In this document: positions 1 to 5,197 of the stretch, piece after piece
Position numbering within the stretch: position 1 is the stretch's first letter
Layout of the letters: each line of letters begins with the position of its first letter
IMG/VR virus record: IMGVR_UViG_2778261360_000011
Span: 1-5,197 of that record
Source: a virus
Lineage: Duplodnaviria; Heunggongvirae; Uroviricota; Caudoviricetes
Length of the DNA: 5,197 nt
Direction: 5' to 3' (one strand)
Notes under the pieces: model-generated
Told to the model about the DNA's origin: nothing
Databases searched by the model: none
Seen by the model: the letters and a program-made list of their open reading frames with translations, nothing else
Position numbers and translations under genes: made by a program

Positions 1-291
1 GAAGCAGAAAAAGCTTATTATGCTTCCATCGGAAACGATGATCTGGCAGCCTGAGTTCACAGATAAAATACTCTCCAGGAAACCCGGGGCGGTTCATCTT
101 TCGTAGCCAACTACTATGATGCGCTTGGAAACTACATCCGCAATCTTCGTGACCCGTCACGCCCACAGGATGCAGCAACAAAGAGTTATGTTGATGGGGT
201 TGCAGAAACAAACCTGAGCAGAACGCTACGAACTCCAGAACCGATATCAACTTTACCAGGCGTTGAGCAACGTAAGAATAAGATTGTTGCA

Positions 292-1815
292 ATGGATGAT
301 TCAGGAGACCCAATCATGGTTCTCCCGGAATCTGGGAGCGCTACTGATGTCATGTTGCAGCTTGCTGCCACCGATGGGTTTAAAAATATCGGTTCCTGCC
401 CTGATGTGGCCACATTAAGAAATACTGAACCTTCGTCAGTAAACCAGCAAATTATTGTCAGAGGTTATTATAGCGATACCCCCGGTCTTGGAGGTGGGGT
501 GTTCATGTCGTTTGGCAGTTCTGAAGCTGACGATGGTGTGAATATTTTTGTTACCCCCGGAGGTAAGCGCTGGAAGCGAACAGGAAGCCACATCGATATT
601 CCGGTAGAGAATGGCGGCATGATGGTGTCTAGGACGGCTGAGCAAAACAGTGAAGCCTTTGAACGTCTGACCGCATGCCTTCCATATGAAGGAGGTACGC
701 TCAGGCTCAATGGATTTTACGATATTAAGTATGGCGCTATCGTGCCTCCACGTGTCACGCTGGAGGGGTGCGGTATGGATTCCTGTGGATTAATTAAAAC
801 AGGTAACGATATTAAAACCGTTCCGGATCGCATGTGGCAGGGTGTACCACACAGCTTCTCCAAAGACTTTATTGTTGCGGTAGATATGGATAGTGACACA
901 TCAGGTGATTTAAGCGGGACACAAACAAGAAGCACCAGAATAATTGGATTGAGTATTCTAAATACTGCGCCAAATCCTTGTGATTACGGGATATATAGCG
1001 CTATCAGTTACAATGTGCGCCTTCAGGACCTGTATATTCATAGGGTGAAAACCGGTTATCGCACTAGTGATAGCTGGTTGCAGACATGGGCAAACATTAC
1101 TATTCAGGATGTCGTTACTGGAGTTAAAATCGAAGCAGGTGGAACCACATATAATTTAAACAATATTTATGTGAAAACATGTTCAGGTGTTGGATTCGAT
1201 CTTAAAAATCCGACATATAGCACAATGACAGGATGCGCTGTGGATTTTGCAAATGGAACCGCATATAAATTTGTGGATTGCACCGGGATTGTGTTAGATG
1301 GTTGTGGGTGCGAAGAAATAACAGGGACACAGATATATGCTCGGGGTTCTAGAATTTGTATTAATGGTTTTAGAGGGGTAAATCCAAAGAAAGGAGATGC
1401 AGAATCTTTTATACTTGATTCATCTGTAATTAATTTAAACTCATCTTATCTTCCTGATTATGTTGGAGGTGGTACAGATAAATACACCAAGATAAATGCG
1501 GCGGTGATAAATTCGAATAACTCTATATTTCCTGACCATGCAAACAATAAAATCACATGGGGCGGTGTTCAATCCATAATTAATATTCATGATGAAAGAG
1601 GTGGATACTCAGTAACAGGAAATTCAACGTATACTGTTCTTGGGAGGGTTGAGGGAGGGGTGATTACAATACTCTCTCTACTGCCACCTACGGGAGATGC
1701 TAATTTTTACCCAATTGGTACAAGGTGGGAGTTACTGTATCCATCGGCTGTAGGTCCGTACAAATGGATTTTGTTAGCGGATAAAATTTGGCGTGTTGCA
1801 GGATCATCATCGTAA
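292..1815 (+). CDS. Phage tailspike / tail-fiber receptor-binding protein, beta-helix type (probable polysaccharide-binding or depolymerase domain); 5' end unresolved
   Basis: ORF track 292-1815 (507 aa), stop TAA 1813-1815. Translation has the repetitive N/G/T/I-rich pattern typical of right-handed parallel beta-helix tailspike domains (e.g. NLNNIYVKTCSGVGFDLKNPTYSTMTGCAVDFANGTAYKFVDCTGIVLDGCGCEEITGTQIYARGSRICINGFRGVN), with an N-proximal GGGVF motif. Context fits: directly upstream of an O-antigen-modifying acyltransferase. ATG 292 has no Shine-Dalgarno sequence, and the same frame is open and protein-like back to position 67 (NYYDALGNYIRNLRDPSRPQDAATKSYVDG...) with no ATG/GTG/TTG, so 292 is probably not the true start. 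Confidence 0.7.
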   Translation: MDDSGDPIMVLPESGSATDVMLQLAATDGFKNIGSCPDVATLRNTEPSSVNQQIIVRGYYSDTPGLGGGVFMSFGSSEADDGVNIFVTPGGKRWKRTGSHIDIPVENGGMMVSRTAEQNSEAFERLTACLPYEGGTLRLNGFYDIKYGAIVPPRVTLEGCGMDSCGLIKTGNDIKTVPDRMWQGVPHSFSKDFIVAVDMDSDTSGDLSGTQTRSTRIIGLSILNTAPNPCDYGIYSAISYNVRLQDLYIHRVKTGYRTSDSWLQTWANITIQDVVTGVKIEAGGTTYNLNNIYVKTCSGVGFDLKNPTYSTMTGCAVDFANGTAYKFVDCTGIVLDGCGCEEITGTQIYARGSRICINGFRGVNPKKGDAESFILDSSVINLNSSYLPDYVGGGTDKYTKINAAVINSNNSIFPDHANNKITWGGVQSIINIHDERGGYSVTGNSTYTVLGRVEGGVITILSLLPPTGDANFYPIGTRWELLYPSAVGPYKWILLADKIWRVAGSSS

Positions 1816-1822
1816 AAATTAA

Positions 1823-1850
1823 TTGCCAAATTTAAATATACAGCTATTAT
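1823..1850 (+). promoter_or_regulatory. Candidate sigma70-type promoter for the acyltransferase gene
   Basis: TTGCCA at 1823-1828, a 16-nt spacer, then TATTAT at 1845-1850, about 30 nt upstream of ATG 1881 in the 65-nt gap after the tailspike stop. The region is very AT-rich, so a chance match is quite possible. Confidence 0.25.
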
Positions 1851-1880
1851 TTTGCACAATACTATGCATAGGTGCAAAAA

Positions 1881-2855
1881 ATGGATGAGAAAGTAATCAA
1901 TATTAGGGCCGTAGCTGCTATTATGGTTGTAGTTCTTCATATTAATTCGCAGTATTTTTATGACATTACGAGCTACTGGCCTGTTTTCGCTTTGATTGGT
2001 TCAGCAATGCGGCCATGCGTGCCTATTTTTATAATGATTTCAGGGTATTTATTGATAGGAAGAGTTATCAGTTCAATTGATTTTATGAAGAGAAGAATAT
2101 CAAGACTTCTTCCTCCAATATTATTTTGGGGGGTGTTTTATGTTTTTTTTGTATCATTTGTTGGAAACGCACAAGTTTCAATAAATTCACTCATGTCAAT
2201 ATTAATTGATCCTCCAATGTTTCATCTATGGTATCTTTATTTGATTGTTGGCGTTTATCTCATGATGCCTATTTTATCATCTTGGTATTTGTCGGCATCA
2301 TTTGGTGATAAGATTTTTTATATTTCGCTTTGGTTTGCATGCCTGCTTGTTGCTCAGTTTGGCCTTGGTGTTGAAATTATAAATAGATATTATCTTGGTC
2401 AATTTTCAACATACTCGTTTTATTTAATAGTGGGTGCTTTTGTTAAGGAAATTTCATTTAAGTACAATGTAAGATGGTCTGTTCCAAGCATGGTTTATAT
2501 TCTAATTACATTACTAATAACAACTCTTACGATTTATGACTGTTATAATAATGGAGCGCCGTCAGAGAAGTATTATGAATACACAAATCCAATGGTTGTT
2601 CTTCAATCAATATTTCTATTTATGGCGTTAATTAAGCTTAACAAATCAAATTGGTTTACAAAAGTTGTTTCAAATTATTCCCTTGGAGTTTATTGTGTTC
2701 ATGTTGCGATAATATTACTAATATTCCCTACAATAAAGACAACAATAGATAATGCATTCCTTTCATACTTTGCATCTATTTCTTTAGTTCTGATCTCATC
2801 AGTTATAATTAGCTCAATTATCAGATTGGTTCCTTTTATAAAAAGTGCATCGTGA
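1881..2855 (+). CDS. Acyltransferase family 3 (AT3) integral-membrane O-acyltransferase, probable phage-encoded O-antigen acetylase (serotype conversion)
   Basis: ORF track 1872-2855. ATG 1881 is preferred over GTG 1872 because AGGTG at 1869-1873 sits 7 nt upstream of it. The protein is strongly hydrophobic with about 10 predicted membrane-spanning segments. It carries an N-terminal R-x10-H motif (NIRAVAAIMVVVLH) and an xSGY/F motif (FIMISGYLLIG), both characteristic of AT3 acyltransferases such as phage O-antigen acetylases. It has no C-terminal SGNH domain. GC is roughly 25-32% in lines I counted by hand, far below the flanking lysis genes (about 53%). Confidence 0.85.
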   Translation: MDEKVINIRAVAAIMVVVLHINSQYFYDITSYWPVFALIGSAMRPCVPIFIMISGYLLIGRVISSIDFMKRRISRLLPPILFWGVFYVFFVSFVGNAQVSINSLMSILIDPPMFHLWYLYLIVGVYLMMPILSSWYLSASFGDKIFYISLWFACLLVAQFGLGVEIINRYYLGQFSTYSFYLIVGAFVKEISFKYNVRWSVPSMVYILITLLITTLTIYDCYNNGAPSEKYYEYTNPMVVLQSIFLFMALIKLNKSNWFTKVVSNYSLGVYCVHVAIILLIFPTIKTTIDNAFLSYFASISLVLISSVIISSIIRLVPFIKSAS

Positions 2856-3109
2856 GTGCTTTAGTTGCATGAGACAAAAGCGGGACACACAAGGCTTTGC
2901 ATTGGTAACTGAATCCTCTGTACCTATCACATTGTCGTGGCACCTTACAAAGTTAGGCATCAAAAGCCACGTCATAGCTATGGAGCCAGAAAACACCTCA
3001 CCTATTCAGAATGTTTTTAGGGATTTCAATTAAACCATATATGTATTAATTGTGTATGATGGACTCACCAACTAAGGTGGGTCTTTATGCACAGTAAACG
3101 GTGGTTTCT

Positions 3110-3514
3110 ATGTCAGTTCAACTAACCAGTGAAACATTAAATCAATGGCTTAGTCTTGGTTCTCTAGCTGCGGTGATAGCAGGAGTACCTCCAGAAGTAG
3201 CGTTGGGGTCTTTGTCAGGAGCGGTAATTTTTGTTACCTCTGCGGTAGAGTACCCAATTAGTCGTCGCGTACTCTTGTCGATGCTTAGCTTTCTCTGTGG
3301 GCTTCTTTTCTACAAACCAGCAGCATCAATTCTTATAGGCGTAGCTAGCCTGATCCCTACTATCACGCAGGACTCTTTCGAGAAAGGGGTTGTTTTCTCT
3401 GCTGGCGCATTCGTGTCAGCAATCGTCGCAGTACGAATTGGCATCTGGCTCTATCACCGTTCCGATAATCCACGTGAGTTAATTCCGGGGAGAAAAGACG
3501 ATGGCAACGTATGA
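3110..3514 (+). CDS. Small multi-pass membrane protein (134 aa), putative holin-like, antiholin or lysis-accessory protein
   Basis: ORF track 3101-3514 (GTG start). ATG 3110 is preferred because GGTGG at 3100-3104 sits 5 nt upstream. Four to five hydrophobic segments (WLSLGSLAAVIAGV, ALGSLSGAVIFVTSAV, VLLSMLSFLCGLLFY, AASILIGVASLIPTI, VVFSAGAFVSAIVAVRIGIWLY) and a charged C-terminus ([19 protein letters not shown]). Its stop (TGA 3512-3514) overlaps the next gene's start by 14 nt. Function is inferred from position and topology only. Confidence 0.5.
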   Translation: MSVQLTSETLNQWLSLGSLAAVIAGVPPEVALGSLSGAVIFVTSAVEYPISRRVLLSMLSFLCGLLFYKPAASILIGVASLIPTITQDSFEKGVVFSAGAFVSAIVAVRIGIWLYHRSDNPRELIPGRKDDGNV

Positions 3515-3809
3515 GCTTTTTTTTCTTATCACCAATGCAGTTATTTGTACTGGCATAGCAATTCGCGTTGTCACATTTCGGCGTAACGGGTCACAACACC
3601 GAAGATGGGGAGGGTGGCTTGCTTATTTCCTGATTGTTGCTGCGGCCAGTATTCCTGTTCGTGTCGCCTATGCAATCTGGTTACGCACGCCAATGGCTGT
3701 GGATTTATCTGAGGTCATTATCAACGCTGTCATGCTCGCTGCGGTTATTAAAACGCGCGGTAACGTCGTTCAAATTTTCAAAGTATCGAGGTCTAAACAT
3801 GGAGATTAA
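3501..3809 (+). CDS. Putative holin (102 aa, 2-3 transmembrane segments, basic C-terminal tail)
   Basis: ATG 3501 is preceded by GGGGAG at 3487-3492 with an 8-nt spacer. Hydrophobic segments [42 protein letters not shown] and [19 protein letters not shown], a basic loop ([11 protein letters not shown]) and a charged C-terminus (KVSRSKHGD). It lies immediately upstream of the endolysin and overlaps its start by 11 nt. Confidence 0.65.
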
Positions 3810-4344
3810 ACAATTCCAGCGAGCTGCTGGTATTAGCGAGGCGCTGGCCGCACGCTGGTTTCTGCATATCACTGCTGCCATGAATGAGTTTGGCATTATC
3901 AAACCAGATGACCAGGCGATGTTTATCGCGCAGGTCGGGCATGAGTCCGGAGGATTTACCCGGTTACAGGAAAACTTCAACTACAGCGTTAATGGACTGT
4001 CCGGGTTTATCCGTGCCGGACGCATCACGCCGGACCAGGCCAGCACGCTGGGACGAAAAGCATATGAGAAGTCTCTGCCTCTGGAGCGCCAGCGTGCGAT
4101 CGCCAATCTGGTGTACAGCAAACGCATGGGGAACAATGCCCCTGGTGATGGCTGGAATTACCGAGGGCGCGGACTTATCCAGATTACCGGTTTGAATAAC
4201 TATCGTGATTGCGGAAACGGCCTGAAGGTTGACCTGCTGGAGAGCCCTGAACTGCTGGCGCAGGACGAATATGCGGCTCGTAGCGCGGCGTGGTTCTTCG
4301 CCAGCAAAGGATGCATGAATATACCGGCGATATTGCACGTGTAA
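3799..4344 (+). CDS. Endolysin, glycoside hydrolase family 19 (class I chitinase-like lysozyme); as encoded the ORF is 3'-truncated by an apparent -1 frameshift
   Basis: ATG 3799 with GAGG at 3788-3791, 7 nt upstream. The 236-aa ORF 3634-4344 in the track is an upstream extension artefact that overlaps the holin out of frame. The protein has GH19 hallmarks: GHESGG with the likely catalytic Glu at residue 49, a second Glu nine residues later (LQENF), [12 protein letters not shown], and AAWFFASKG. There is no signal peptide or signal-anchor-release (SAR) segment. The frame ends at TAA 4342-4344 (181 aa), but the conserved GH19 C-terminal block ([18 protein letters not shown]...KVLAV) is encoded in the next frame from 4323 to TGA 4425-4427. 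Confidence 0.85.
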
Positions 4345-4423
4345 CTCTGATTATCAATGGTGGCCGGAACGGCATCGACGACCGGCGCGCGCGGTACATC
4401 ACTGCCAGTAAGGTGCTGGCGGT

Positions 4424-4906
4424 ATGATCTGGGCATTCGCAAAAGCATACTGGAAACAGTTGGTTATCATGGCGATGCTTGCTGTTCTGGTCATATCAGG
4501 AGTTGTAGCCTGGAATGCACACGGCAGTCGTCAGTACGATGCCGGGTATGCGCAGGCGAAGAAAGACCGCAAAGCTGAAGATGAGATAGTTCGTCAGCAC
4601 TACGAACAGGAGAAATCGATCAATGAACGTGAAGCGCAGCATAGGATCGACCAGGCGCGCAATGATGCTCTTGATGCTGCCGCTCGCGCTGGCCGGTTGC
4701 AGCAACAGCTCGTTGCCATCCGTGAGCAGCTCAGGCACTATAACGCCATTGTCGGCGCTGGGTCGTCAGCCGCAGACACCGGAGTTTTGCTTTCCGACGT
4801 GTTCAGCAAATCTCTCGAGAGAAATAGACAACTGGCAGAGTATGCTGACCGGGCATCCGAAGCCGGAAGAGTCTGCGAAAAACAGTACGACACCCTGACC
4901 AGATAG
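4424..4906 (+). CDS. Rz-like inner-membrane spanin (i-spanin)
   Basis: ATG 4424 is the first start after the in-frame stop at 4409-4411, with AAGGTG at 4410-4415 upstream. N-terminal transmembrane segment (LVIMAMLAVLVISGVVAW) followed by a long charged, coiled-coil-like periplasmic region rich in Q/R/E/A (RIDQARNDALDAAARAGRLQQQLVAIREQLR) and a C-proximal Cys. It sits last in the lysis cassette. Confidence 0.8.
   Translation: MIWAFAKAYWKQLVIMAMLAVLVISGVVAWNAHGSRQYDAGYAQAKKDRKAEDEIVRQHYEQEKSINEREAQHRIDQARNDALDAAARAGRLQQQLVAIREQLRHYNAIVGAGSSAADTGVLLSDVFSKSLERNRQLAEYADRASEAGRVCEKQYDTLTR
4623..4898 (+). CDS. Rz1-like outer-membrane lipoprotein spanin (o-spanin), fully embedded in the +1 frame of Rz
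   Basis: ORF 4623-4898 lies entirely inside the Rz gene in the +1 frame. AGGAG at 4607-4611 precedes ATG 4623. Signal peptide with a lipobox (MMLLMLPLALAG-C, then Ser at +2), and a Ser/Pro/Thr-rich mature part. Alternative starts are the ATGs at 4662 and 4665. Confidence 0.7.
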   Translation: MNVKRSIGSTRRAMMLLMLPLALAGCSNSSLPSVSSSGTITPLSALGRQPQTPEFCFPTCSANLSREIDNWQSMLTGHPKPEESAKNSTTP

Positions 4907-5062
4907 CATGGCATTTTTCACGGTACTGATTTCCGGTGACGGTATATAAAACGGTACGGGAAAAATTGAGATTTGGAAAAATGTTATCACTCAATTGGTT
5001 ATGGTTATCGTAAATAATTGAGTGGGAATGATTTGACCCTGCACTATGAATGAAATAAATAT

Positions 5063-5086
5063 CCTCCGGCATAGCCGGAGGTTTTT
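5063..5086 (+). terminator. Rho-independent (intrinsic) terminator downstream of the lysis cassette
   Basis: Perfect 8-bp GC-rich stem (CCTCCGGC at 5063-5070 pairing with GCCGGAGG at 5074-5081), a 3-nt loop, then TTTTT at 5082-5086. An A-rich tract (AAATAAAT) precedes the stem, so it could also terminate transcripts from the opposite strand. Confidence 0.75.
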
Positions 5087-5197
5087 CAAATGCGCCTATA
5101 AGGCTCTCTTACCAGCCGCGCCCTAACAGGCGCACACGATCTGACATTTGCATCCAACTTCGTTACTTACGGCCCGTAAACGGGCTGCCCGGATAGG

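Follow-up and report, generated by a model that had tools for sequence, protein, structure and literature searches.

A known two-gene holin pair heads the lysis cassette of an epsilon15-like prophage

In this study we analysed a stretch of viral DNA of 5,197 nucleotides (IMG/VR record IMGVR_UViG_2778261360_000011, positions 1 to 5,197; hereafter the window) and find that the two membrane-protein genes ahead of its endolysin, here called A and B, are the known two-gene holin pair of an epsilon15-like prophage. As such the finding is largely ordinary. Orthologues of gene A are already named 'putative holin' in NCBI PGAP, both genes are annotated as putative holins in the record of phage Tyrion, and the epsilon15 counterpart gp23 has been labelled variously 'hypothetical', 'membrane protein' and 'putative holin'. 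The window itself is of little import, its lysis genes being the usual ones of a common enterobacterial prophage, with identical proteins in hundreds of public assemblies. What emerges from the comparison is that the two proteins are a strictly linked unit that moves between phage and endolysin types. Judged by sequence comparison, A and B are one conserved mobile two-gene holin unit, since they are adjacent in 239 loci and stand ahead of many unrelated endolysins.

RESULTS

Organisation of the lysis cassette

The lysis cassette runs in the order holin pair, GH19 endolysin and Rz with embedded Rz1 (Table 1). Gene A overlaps gene B by 14 nt, and gene B overlaps the endolysin gene by 11 nt (3799-3809), as read from the sequence. 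A preliminary description of this DNA had given proteins of 134 and 102 aa with these same overlaps and had taken both genes for membrane proteins ahead of the endolysin; the reading of the ORFs bears out all of this, including the position at the head of the cassette. Coupled translation had been proposed as well. This is plausible with an overlap geometry that is kept in 239 loci, although each gene also has a Shine-Dalgarno sequence of its own: GGTGG at 3100-3104, with correct spacing to the start, for A; GGGGAG at 3487-3492, sitting in the 3' end of gene A, for B; and GAGG at 3788-3791 for the endolysin. A GTG at 3101, in frame with gene A, is unlikely as a start because it falls within the Shine-Dalgarno sequence. 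For the same reason, and because no charge would be added, a lambda-like S107/S105 dual start (GTG 3101 and ATG 3110, M-V-S-M) was rejected.

The 405-nt gene A and the identical 14-nt A/B overlap recur in 83 of 83 close sources (80 IMG/VR loci, epsilon15, Tyrion and the window), and the 11-nt B/endolysin overlap is identical in every close source with a GH19 endolysin. Such constancy of gene length and overlap is more than chance.

Table 1. Coordinates of the features in the window
Feature	Position	Strand	Description
Long RNA hairpin	3032..3107	+	directly 5' of gene A; conserved core ~3041-3102
Gene A	3110..3514	+	ATG 3110, TGA 3512-3514, 134 aa; first gene of the two-gene holin unit
14-nt A/B overlap	3501..3514	+	ATGGCAACGTATGA; sequence read
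Gene B	3501..3809	+	ATG 3501, TAA 3807-3809, 102 aa
GH19 endolysin	3799..4344	+	ATG 3799; PF00182, PHROG 181; homologue of SPN1S endolysin PDB 4OK7
Rz-like i-spanin (DUF2514)	4424..4906	+	PF10721, E 1e-41; PHROG 312 and PHROG 11621, both 'Rz-like spanin'
Rz1-like o-spanin, embedded in Rz	4623-4898	+	lipobox-like LALAGC
IS200/IS605-family element end (IS200C-like)	5055..5197		adjoins the lysis cassette, outside the holin unit

Gene A belongs to a holin family

In the preliminary description gene A fitted no recognised family by eye. This view is not supported by the profile searches, which led to a holin family and not to an unrelated non-lysis family: gene A matches Pfam PF16931 (Phage_holin_8) with 42 bits (E 1.2e-10, residues 17-120 on profile positions 17-109 of 121), above the gathering cut-off of 26.4 bits, and PHROG 198 'holin' at 4e-39. 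All 120 of the 120 listed gene A homologues carry a precomputed PF16931 match. The exact gene A protein was found with PF16931 in six genomes, whose precomputed Pfam order is PF16931, PF05449, PF00182 and DUF2514, and it occurs in 692 blocks of a public collection. NCBIfam gave no match above cut-off for A, B or the endolysin, and a sequence search of the gene A family against the PDB returned nothing below E 0.1. The best Foldseek matches of the gene A model in BFVD are named 'phage holin' (E 3e-3, TM 0.57, below significance), a result that is consistent with a holin role of A and no proof of it.

It is hardly conceivable that 3110-3514 is not a real translated gene. Gene A has a median dN/dS of 0.042 (B 0.064, endolysin 0.067), the variable columns among 52 distinct alleles are distributed 23/13/103 over the three codon positions, the length of 405 nt is fixed in the 83 sources, homologues reach down to 23% identity and a Shine-Dalgarno sequence is present. 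Hence gene A is real and, as read from these substitution patterns, translated and strongly constrained. Purifying selection is strong on gene B as well. Its relatives (17 proteins of 115-134 aa with 23-43% identity) align end to end with G37 and G64 invariant, and among 158 family members G33, G37, A38, R53, S60, G64 and G127 are conserved to at least 97%.

Hydropathy and an AlphaFold2 model (mean pLDDT 80) place helices of gene A at 7-24, 28-44, 50-66, 68-79 and 92-119, in agreement with the four to five hydrophobic helices described before, and the helix pattern is conserved among homologues as distant as 23% identity. From hydropathy, the positive-inside rule and the model we infer a four-span N-in/C-in topology for A. 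A layout with three TMDs and the N-terminus outside may be conceivable as well, since the N-terminus and the H1-H2 turn are without basic residues.

Gene B is a class-I-like holin by prediction

Gene B had been called holin-like, and it matches Pfam PF05449 (Phage_holin_3_7) with 94.2 bits (E 5e-27, residues 12-94 on profile positions 2-80 of 80), exceeding the gathering cut-off of 25.4 bits and covering the profile over its full length; it also matches PHROG 217 at 6e-35. Its hydrophobic stretches at 3-26, 36-61 and 64-85 correspond to three TMDs. In the family (158 members) the net charges are -0.5 for the N-terminus, +3.75 for loop 1 (25-37), -0.1 for loop 2 and +3.3 for the C-tail, and the predicted topology is N-out/C-in with three TMDs, class-I-like. 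Holins are described as small proteins (<150 aa) that have one or more TMDs and end in a hydrophilic C-terminus of high charge (PMC6116005). Both proteins answer to this description, A with 134 aa, four to five hydrophobic helices and a charged C-tail, B with 102 aa, three TMDs and a charged C-tail.

A and B are strictly linked across phages

An A-like gene lies directly 5' of a B-like gene in 239 loci, including phiCTX, Hafnia phage yong2, Pseudomonas, Achromobacter and Xanthomonas. The two genes overlap or abut in nearly all of these loci, with an overlap of 14 nt in 161 of the 239 and of 4-11 nt, or an abutment, in most others. In the co-occurrence profile of the pair both genes were present in 110 of 113 viral loci and in 46 of 48 genome loci retrieved via distant B homologues, the retrieval being based on one conserved C-terminal motif that very divergent A-less PF05449 members could escape. 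Where one of the two genes is missing, the locus lies at a contig edge (three cases), is disrupted (one case) or is the P2 control; wherever both positions are readable, A and B co-occur. PF16931 followed by PF05449 was found in five of five distant pairs tested by Pfam, among them phiCTX orf9/orf10 and the pair of Hafnia phage yong2, and the pairwise identities of A correlate with those of B (r = 0.95). Paralogy between A and B was not detected (hhalign probability 1.4%). A programmed frameshift leading to an A-B fusion was considered and rejected: the fusion P0101 is present on only 2 contigs (read-assembly data) and is more likely an indel or an error.

Soluble endolysins of at least six unrelated types follow the pair, which stands before GH19, PG_binding_1+Muramidase, GH108+PG_binding_3, Peptidase_M15_4, CHAP and two unassigned types. 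A hydrophobic N-terminal segment is absent from all six endolysin types examined, so that a large-hole holin is needed. The linkage of A and B is strict across podovirus, P2-like myovirus and other prophage backgrounds. Upstream neighbours of A differ between loci, whereas the order A, B, endolysin and Rz/Rz1 is kept in the window and in the 239 loci.

These data bear on the idea that A might have an unrelated membrane function, as a moron beside the lysis genes involved in superinfection exclusion or envelope modification. An acyltransferase moron of low GC does lie just upstream (1872-2855), and A is only a 'membrane protein' in older records. However, the GC content of A is that of the lysis genes (0.42-0.49) and unlike that of the acyltransferase region (0.29-0.33), A overlaps B and stays linked to it in podovirus, P2-like myovirus and other prophages with different neighbours, and B, endolysin and spanins come after A even though the upstream neighbours vary. 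A search with PADLOC gave no family at E <= 0.1 for A or B. We therefore regard such a function as very improbable, and the superinfection exclusion suggested in the preliminary description is without support, with no PADLOC match and A never seen apart from B and the lysis cassette.

Regions flanking the holin pair

The hairpin upstream of gene A has a minimum free energy of -31.8 kcal/mol and a z-score of -4.5, and none of 200 shuffles folds as well. In the window its stem base pairs with the Shine-Dalgarno sequence of gene A. A consensus hairpin from 45 epsilon15-like upstream regions shows compensatory changes at 5 pairs, and at the matching site the RefSeq record of epsilon15 bears the annotation 'RNaseIII, mRNA processing'. 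Rfam returned nothing at the gathering threshold, and no tRNA was found. Further upstream of the cassette lies the low-GC acyltransferase moron.

The endolysin matches 4ok7_A at E 2.7e-106, and the match stops at residue 175. An apparent 1-nt deletion near 4320 (ATGAA-TAT in the window versus ATGAAGTAT in the loci L003, L004 and L006) leaves 181 aa instead of 208-209 aa, and the lost C-terminus runs on in another frame to 4427. The 546-nt endolysin gene is found in the window only (1 of 76 sources), the others having 627 or 630 nt. This frameshift had been missed in the preliminary description. With its endolysin frameshifted, the lysis cassette of the window is probably not functional and appears decayed.

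Downstream of Rz the similarity of the window to L003 and L004 ends at 5054. Positions 5040-5197 match ~9,500 places in E. coli genomes that are annotated as IS200C transposase elements, and an IS200 terminal hairpin is present at 5063-5081. The IS200 end marks the edge of the prophage remnant.

DISCUSSION

A possible heteromeric holin

The preliminary description had named an antiholin, a holin partner or a second holin as options for gene A. This set of options was well chosen, as A is lysis-associated, and that it is a lysis protein acting with B we consider very probable. More specifically, A might be an obligate co-subunit of a heteromeric holin and not a dispensable regulator; on the sequence evidence this is our tentative preference, and its probability comes close to even. 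In such a system A and B would be made late from one transcript and would accumulate in the inner membrane. B would take up its N-out/C-in, three-TMD, class-I-like topology and A a four-span N-in/C-in topology, with an H1-H2 hairpin, a short acidic turn, a kinked H3/H4 and then H5. A would bear a charged tail on the cytoplasmic side, and its H2 holds the invariant motif GxxxGA. The two proteins might associate via their transmembrane helices and open large holes at a programmed time; the holes would free the cytoplasmic endolysin, and Rz/Rz1 would then disrupt the outer membrane.

In its general form this hypothesis states that PF16931 and PF05449 make up an obligate heteromeric canonical holin in which neither subunit works alone, with the Gly/Ala/Ser-rich H1-H2 hairpin and its GxxxGA motif as the timing switch. 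It is a possible reading, to which we would give somewhat less than an even chance. Equally tentative is its taxonomic reach: the two-subunit holin might be spread over Gamma- and Betaproteobacteria, in Uetakevirus, phiCTX-like P2 relatives and prophages of Pseudomonas, Achromobacter, Xanthomonas and Halomonas. We found no experiments on the A-B pair, PF16931 or PF05449 in the searchable literature, and both Pfam names say 'putative'. For the holins of epsilon15, SPN1S and Uetakevirus the literature holds annotation-level statements only.

Strict co-occurrence of A and B is also compatible with a holin and a dedicated antiholin, and an antiholin reading ranks close to that of a co-holin. Here B would be a class-I-like three-TMD holin and A a membrane antiholin or timing regulator that might bind B and delay triggering, by analogy with the action of P2 LysA on Y. 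We take this to be a serious possibility, if one that we would sooner doubt than accept. B follows the textbook, with three TMDs in predicted N-out/C-in orientation and a basic C-tail, and Gly, Ala, Ser and Thr make up 41% of H1 and 53% of H2 in A, a composition typical of TMDs that are able to leave the membrane. A is like P2 LysA in size (134 versus 141 aa), each having about four hydrophobic spans, and P2 lysA is annotated 'nonessential; affects timing of lysis'. Separate holin and antiholin genes exist in P2 and T4 (PMC6116005). Moreover, the P2-like phage phiCTX has the A-B pair in place of Y and is without a lysA-like gene between endolysin and lysB. However, A and LysA have no sequence relationship (hhalign probability 0.2%), A stands 5' of B and not after the endolysin, and a lower yield of A than of B is unlikely, given that A is the upstream gene of an overlapping pair. 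Antiholins with a gene of their own can typically be dispensed with, yet A is constrained at least as much as B (dN/dS 0.042 versus 0.064) and is kept in all 239 loci, which span roughly 20% identity.

Roles could also be the reverse of what is usually annotated, where the name 'holin' goes to the 102-aa protein alone: A would then form the hole and B would be the regulator or antiholin. A has holin-family labels of its own (PF16931, PHROG 198), is the more conserved of the two proteins and combines a charged C-terminal tail with the invariant GxxxGA helix-packing motif. The anatomy of B is more canonical, though, and its Pfam name puts it in holin superfamily III. Sequence data do not tell this arrangement from the co-holin model, and we think it improbable.

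Many annotations reserve the name 'holin' for the 102-aa protein, while the 134-aa protein stays 'hypothetical' or a 'membrane protein'. If both proteins were required, the pair would be a Gram-negative counterpart of the two-component holins of Bacillus phages and mycobacteriophages, and epsilon15, phiV10 or SPN1S in Salmonella or E. coli would offer a tractable system for lysis timing by a heteromeric holin. For the re-use of such genes in programmed lysis, a 'holin' cloned alone might fail to give the native behaviour.

Comparison with known systems

The closest known system is that of the Salmonella phage epsilon15 (Uetakevirus), whose gp23 and gp24 are orthologues of A (92.5% identical) and B (81%); the same epsilon15-type pair is present in phiV10, SPN1S, Tyrion, HEMP4 and others. 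Epsilon15 and the window have in common the gene order, the 14-nt and 11-nt overlaps, the GH19 endolysin, Rz/Rz1 and the upstream hairpin. The window differs from epsilon15 in its tailspike and acyltransferase region, its frameshifted endolysin and the IS200 end after Rz.

More distant counterparts are found in phiCTX (orf9/orf10), Burkholderia phage Mana and Hafnia phage yong2, where PF16931 is again followed by PF05449 immediately ahead of the endolysin and spanins. These are P2-like myoviruses with other endolysins, for example PG_binding_1+Muramidase in phiCTX. The announcement of Mana mentions "two predicted holin genes" resembling those of epsilon15 (PMC8188340). In the mixed-taxon panels that we aligned, identity to the window proteins is 23-43% for A and 21-47% for B. 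A homology of A to the Pseudomonas aeruginosa pyocin holin Hol (PA0614) via phiCTX orf9 was considered and dropped, as the closest cluster of orf9 (99% identical) is on 37 contigs only. Nothing in the orf9 search pointed to the ubiquitous pyocin gene, and the literature on Hol therefore has no bearing on A.

Y and LysA of P2 are like A and B in outline, with a class-I three-TMD holin and a separate four-span membrane protein of ~140 aa that affects lysis timing. Homology was not detectable between A and LysA, A and Y or B and Y (hhalign probability <=0.3%). P2 lysA follows the endolysin and is non-essential, whereas A comes first and is never absent.

In the two-component holins of Gram-positive and mycobacterial phages, SPP1 (gp24.1/gp26), PBSX (XhlA/XhlB) and Ms6 (gp4/gp5), a pair of neighbouring holin-like genes has been proposed to work as a single functional unit with two holin effectors, and in all three the paired holin-like proteins are both needed for efficient lysis (PMC6116005). 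These phages come from unrelated hosts, and their co-requirement is known by experiment, whereas for A and B we infer it from co-occurrence alone.

Finally, B shares with S105/S107 of lambda, as described in PMC6116005, the predicted N-out/C-in three-TMD layout and the basic C-tail, and the two have no detectable sequence similarity (hhalign probability 0.1%). Unlike lambda S, B has no charged dual-start motif, and the second function would instead be provided by a separate gene, A.

Organization of the prophage end

As seen from six-frame ORFs and profile searches, the window is the late end of an epsilon15-like (Uetakevirus) prophage. For the 134-aa membrane-protein gene (gene A) and the 102-aa gene behind it (gene B), the coordinates, lengths and both overlaps of the preliminary description were reproduced by ORF calls and sequence reading. 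With 82-90% DNA identity, the lysis cassette matches Escherichia phages HEMP4, phiv142-3 and phiV10 as well as Salmonella phages epsilon15 and SPN1S and Enterobacter phage Tyrion, and two IMG/VR contigs, L003 and L004, share 99.2-99.4% identity with the window across 2864-5054. A public assembly collection has 692 blocks listing the exact gene A protein, which there belongs to chromosomal prophages with the order PF16931, PF05449, GH19, DUF2514.

Features of the prophage end (SD, Shine-Dalgarno sequence)
Feature	Position	Strand	Remarks
Beta-helix tailspike ORF	292-1815		six-frame ORFs, profile searches
Low-GC acyltransferase	1872-2855		PF01757
RNA hairpin	3032-3107		directly 5' of gene A; conserved core about 3041-3102
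Palindrome	about 3037-3050		columns about 20-33 of the upstream alignment
SD of gene A, GGTGG	3100-3104		plausible spacing; inside end of hairpin
Gene A	3110-3514	+	first gene of lysis cassette
SD of gene B, GGGGAG	3487-3492		plausible spacing; inside 3' end of gene A
Gene B	3501-3809	+	lysis cassette, after gene A
SD of endolysin, GAGG	3788-3791		plausible spacing; inside 3' end of gene B
GH19 endolysin	starts 3799	+	lysis cassette
Rz-like spanin	4424-4906	+	DUF2514
Rz1	4623-4898	+	embedded in Rz-like spanin gene
IS200C-type element	5055-5197		starts about 150 nt past Rz
Terminal IS hairpin	5063-5081		G+C-rich

The acyltransferase region (1223-2863, GC 29-33%) looks like a mosaic serotype-conversion moron. 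L003 and L004, the closest relatives, lack this region and match the window only at 802-1222 and 2864-5054, and related genomes L244-L249 have an acyltransferase gene on the other strand. The first ~100 residues of the tailspike-like ORF align to ~114-320 of tail-fibre PHROG profiles (window 1-420), so the N-terminal part should lie upstream, in another frame or outside the window; a split gene is possible.

Near 4320 the endolysin gene carries a 1-nt deletion (ATGAA-TAT, versus ATGAAGTAT in L003, L004 and the related locus L006). Its ORF ends at 4344, the conserved C-terminus runs on in another frame to 4427, and the match to the SPN1S endolysin (4OK7) ends at residue 175; among 76 sources the window is the only one with a 546-nt endolysin gene. 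This frameshift reflects either a pseudogene in a decaying prophage or a sequencing error at 4320, and genes A and B are intact either way. Similarity to related prophages stops at 5054, and the remainder matches IS200C elements (IS200/IS605 family), of which E. coli genomes contain thousands of copies.

Translation and constraint

The hairpin preceding gene A (-31.8 kcal/mol, z -4.5) is conserved across 45 epsilon15-like sequences with some compensatory pairs, and epsilon15 has an RNase III processing site annotated at the equivalent position. The base of the stem pairs, in the window, with the gene A Shine-Dalgarno sequence, and this pairing may regulate how the lysis genes are translated. 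Immediately 5' of the hairpin, most of the 45 sequences have an almost perfect palindrome, AACCATATATGGTT or variants such as AACCATAAATGGTT, which may be a regulator binding site; its right half is changed in the window (ACCATATATGTATT).

Gene A measures 405 nt and overlaps gene B by 14 nt in 83/83 close sources, and the overlap between gene B and the endolysin is 11 nt wherever a GH19 endolysin comes next; such constancy argues that the ORF pattern is not due to chance. Median dN/dS (Nei-Gojobori, 50-odd distinct alleles) was 0.042 for gene A, 0.064 for gene B and 0.067 for the endolysin, and the variable columns of gene A were distributed 23/13/103 over the codon positions. Hence 3110-3514 is translated and tightly constrained, and the reservation that it might not be translated is effectively excluded.

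Families and predicted anatomy

The preliminary description had found nothing that placed the 134-aa protein in a recognised family, but it belongs to Pfam PF16931 "Phage_holin_8" (42 bits, cut-off 26.4) and PHROG 198 "holin" (4e-39). NCBI names its orthologues "putative holin", epsilon15 RefSeq lists gp23 (gene A) as "membrane protein, three transmembrane domains" and gp24 (gene B) as "holin", and in Tyrion both genes are annotated as putative holins. Run exhaustively over 1.84 billion representatives, HMMER returned 52 gene A matches at E <= 1e-3, about fifteen of them full-length relatives aligning end to end at 23-43% identity, which points to a small but real family. No relationship of gene A to gene B or to LysA and Y of P2 could be detected, and neither PADLOC nor NCBIfam nor PDB contained a relative. 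Superinfection exclusion, proposed earlier as one possible function, is effectively excluded, there being no PADLOC relative.

Four to five hydrophobic helices had been proposed for gene A; the AlphaFold2 model (pLDDT 80, pTM 0.66) gives five, at 7-24, 28-44, 50-66, 68-79 and 92-119. In charge maps drawn for both genes across 158 family members, the gene A N-terminus (without Lys/Arg) and the H1-H2 turn (25-29) each carry a net -1.1, loop 45-53 carries +1.5 (R53 98% conserved) and loop 81-93 carries -0.6; the C-tail averages 3.5 basic and 2.8 acidic residues. In the simplest model gene A would cross the membrane four times, N-in/C-in: an H1-H2 hairpin whose short periplasmic turn is acidic, then a kinked H3/H4, then H5. 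A three-span N-out arrangement is a possible alternative. G33, G37, A38 and G64 show no or almost no variation, the first three forming a GxxxGA motif in H2 of the kind typical of transmembrane helix packing, and Gly/Ala/Ser/Thr make up 41% of H1 and 53% of H2.

The holin-like topology ascribed to the 102-aa protein is borne out by prediction: three hydrophobic stretches are seen in gene B, whose N-terminus is acidic, whose first loop is strongly basic (+3.75) and whose C-tail is also basic (+3.3). Little or no variation occurs at R22, at A41 and in an R-G-N-V motif where TMD3 ends.

Linkage of genes A and B

The co-occurrence of the two genes shows that they are one unit. Both are present in 110/113 viral loci searched with HMMs of both families, the other three being the P2 control, one locus that is disrupted and one at a contig edge. 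Each locus reached via distant gene A relatives has a B-like gene immediately after the A-like gene, and Pfam finds PF16931 then PF05449 in 5/5 pairs tested, phiCTX orf9/orf10 and Hafnia phage yong2 among them. Conversely, starting from distant gene B homologues in a species-representative genome set (Pseudomonas, Halopseudomonas, Achromobacter, Xanthomonas, Kushneria, Halomonas), gene A lies directly upstream in 46/48 loci, and both exceptions sit at contig ends. At 239 junctions the overlap is 14 nt in 161 and 4-11 nt in 38, most others abutting, and the pairwise identities of A track those of B (correlation r = 0.95). One protein from read assemblies (P0101, 232 aa; 2 contigs, 21 member sequences) is a natural A-B fusion in which both domains were joined through an indel within the overlap (…RELIPGEKTMVTHEFF…). 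Although this fusion is probably an error or a rare variant, it could be used as a tethered heterodimer.

Behind the pair we found GH19 (145 loci), PG_binding_1+Muramidase or GH108+PG_binding_3 (38), Peptidase_M15_4 (16), CHAP (5), two types without Pfam match (L088-type, 13; L075-type, 5) and non-lysin genes (remaining 14). Endolysin type differs even among close epsilon15-like relatives. In six loci whose gene A protein is at least 92% identical to that of the window (L050, L063, L071, L075, L077, L078) a CHAP or L075-type enzyme replaces GH19 while A and B are kept, indicating a recombination breakpoint at the B/endolysin junction. No hydrophobic N-terminal segment was found in the endolysin types downstream of the pair, so all would need a large-hole holin.

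Comparison with known holin systems

Family membership, constraint, strict linkage, independence of endolysin type and holin-like anatomy are established properties of A and B. We favour a heteromeric two-subunit holin, since neither gene is found alone (apart from contig ends and the disrupted locus) and gene A is at least as constrained as gene B, is the upstream member of the overlapping pair and has an invariant helix-packing motif. Expressed from one late transcript, both proteins would build up in the inner membrane and jointly open it for the cytoplasmic endolysin. A close rival is that gene B is the holin and gene A a membrane antiholin like LysA of P2, which it resembles in size and span number; besides this precedent, lysA is absent where gene A is present.

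The two-gene holin finding itself is already known and no surprise as regards the window. In the literature searched we found no experiments on the pair, nor a quantitative account elsewhere of the strict two-way A-B linkage among distant hosts and types of endolysin, which poses a moderately interesting question for phage-lysis specialists.

At the sequence level gene B shows no detectable similarity to either lambda S or the P2 holin, although its charge and TMD pattern is predicted to be the class-I layout, N-out/C-in, of lambda S105 (PMC6116005). The pair occurs in backgrounds from podoviruses to P2-like myoviruses; in the latter it takes the position of the P2 holin Y and, unlike in P2, no lysA follows the endolysin. 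Among paired holin-like genes some are holin and antiholin, and others, as in PBSX, Ms6 and SPP1, form two-effector complexes (PMC6116005).
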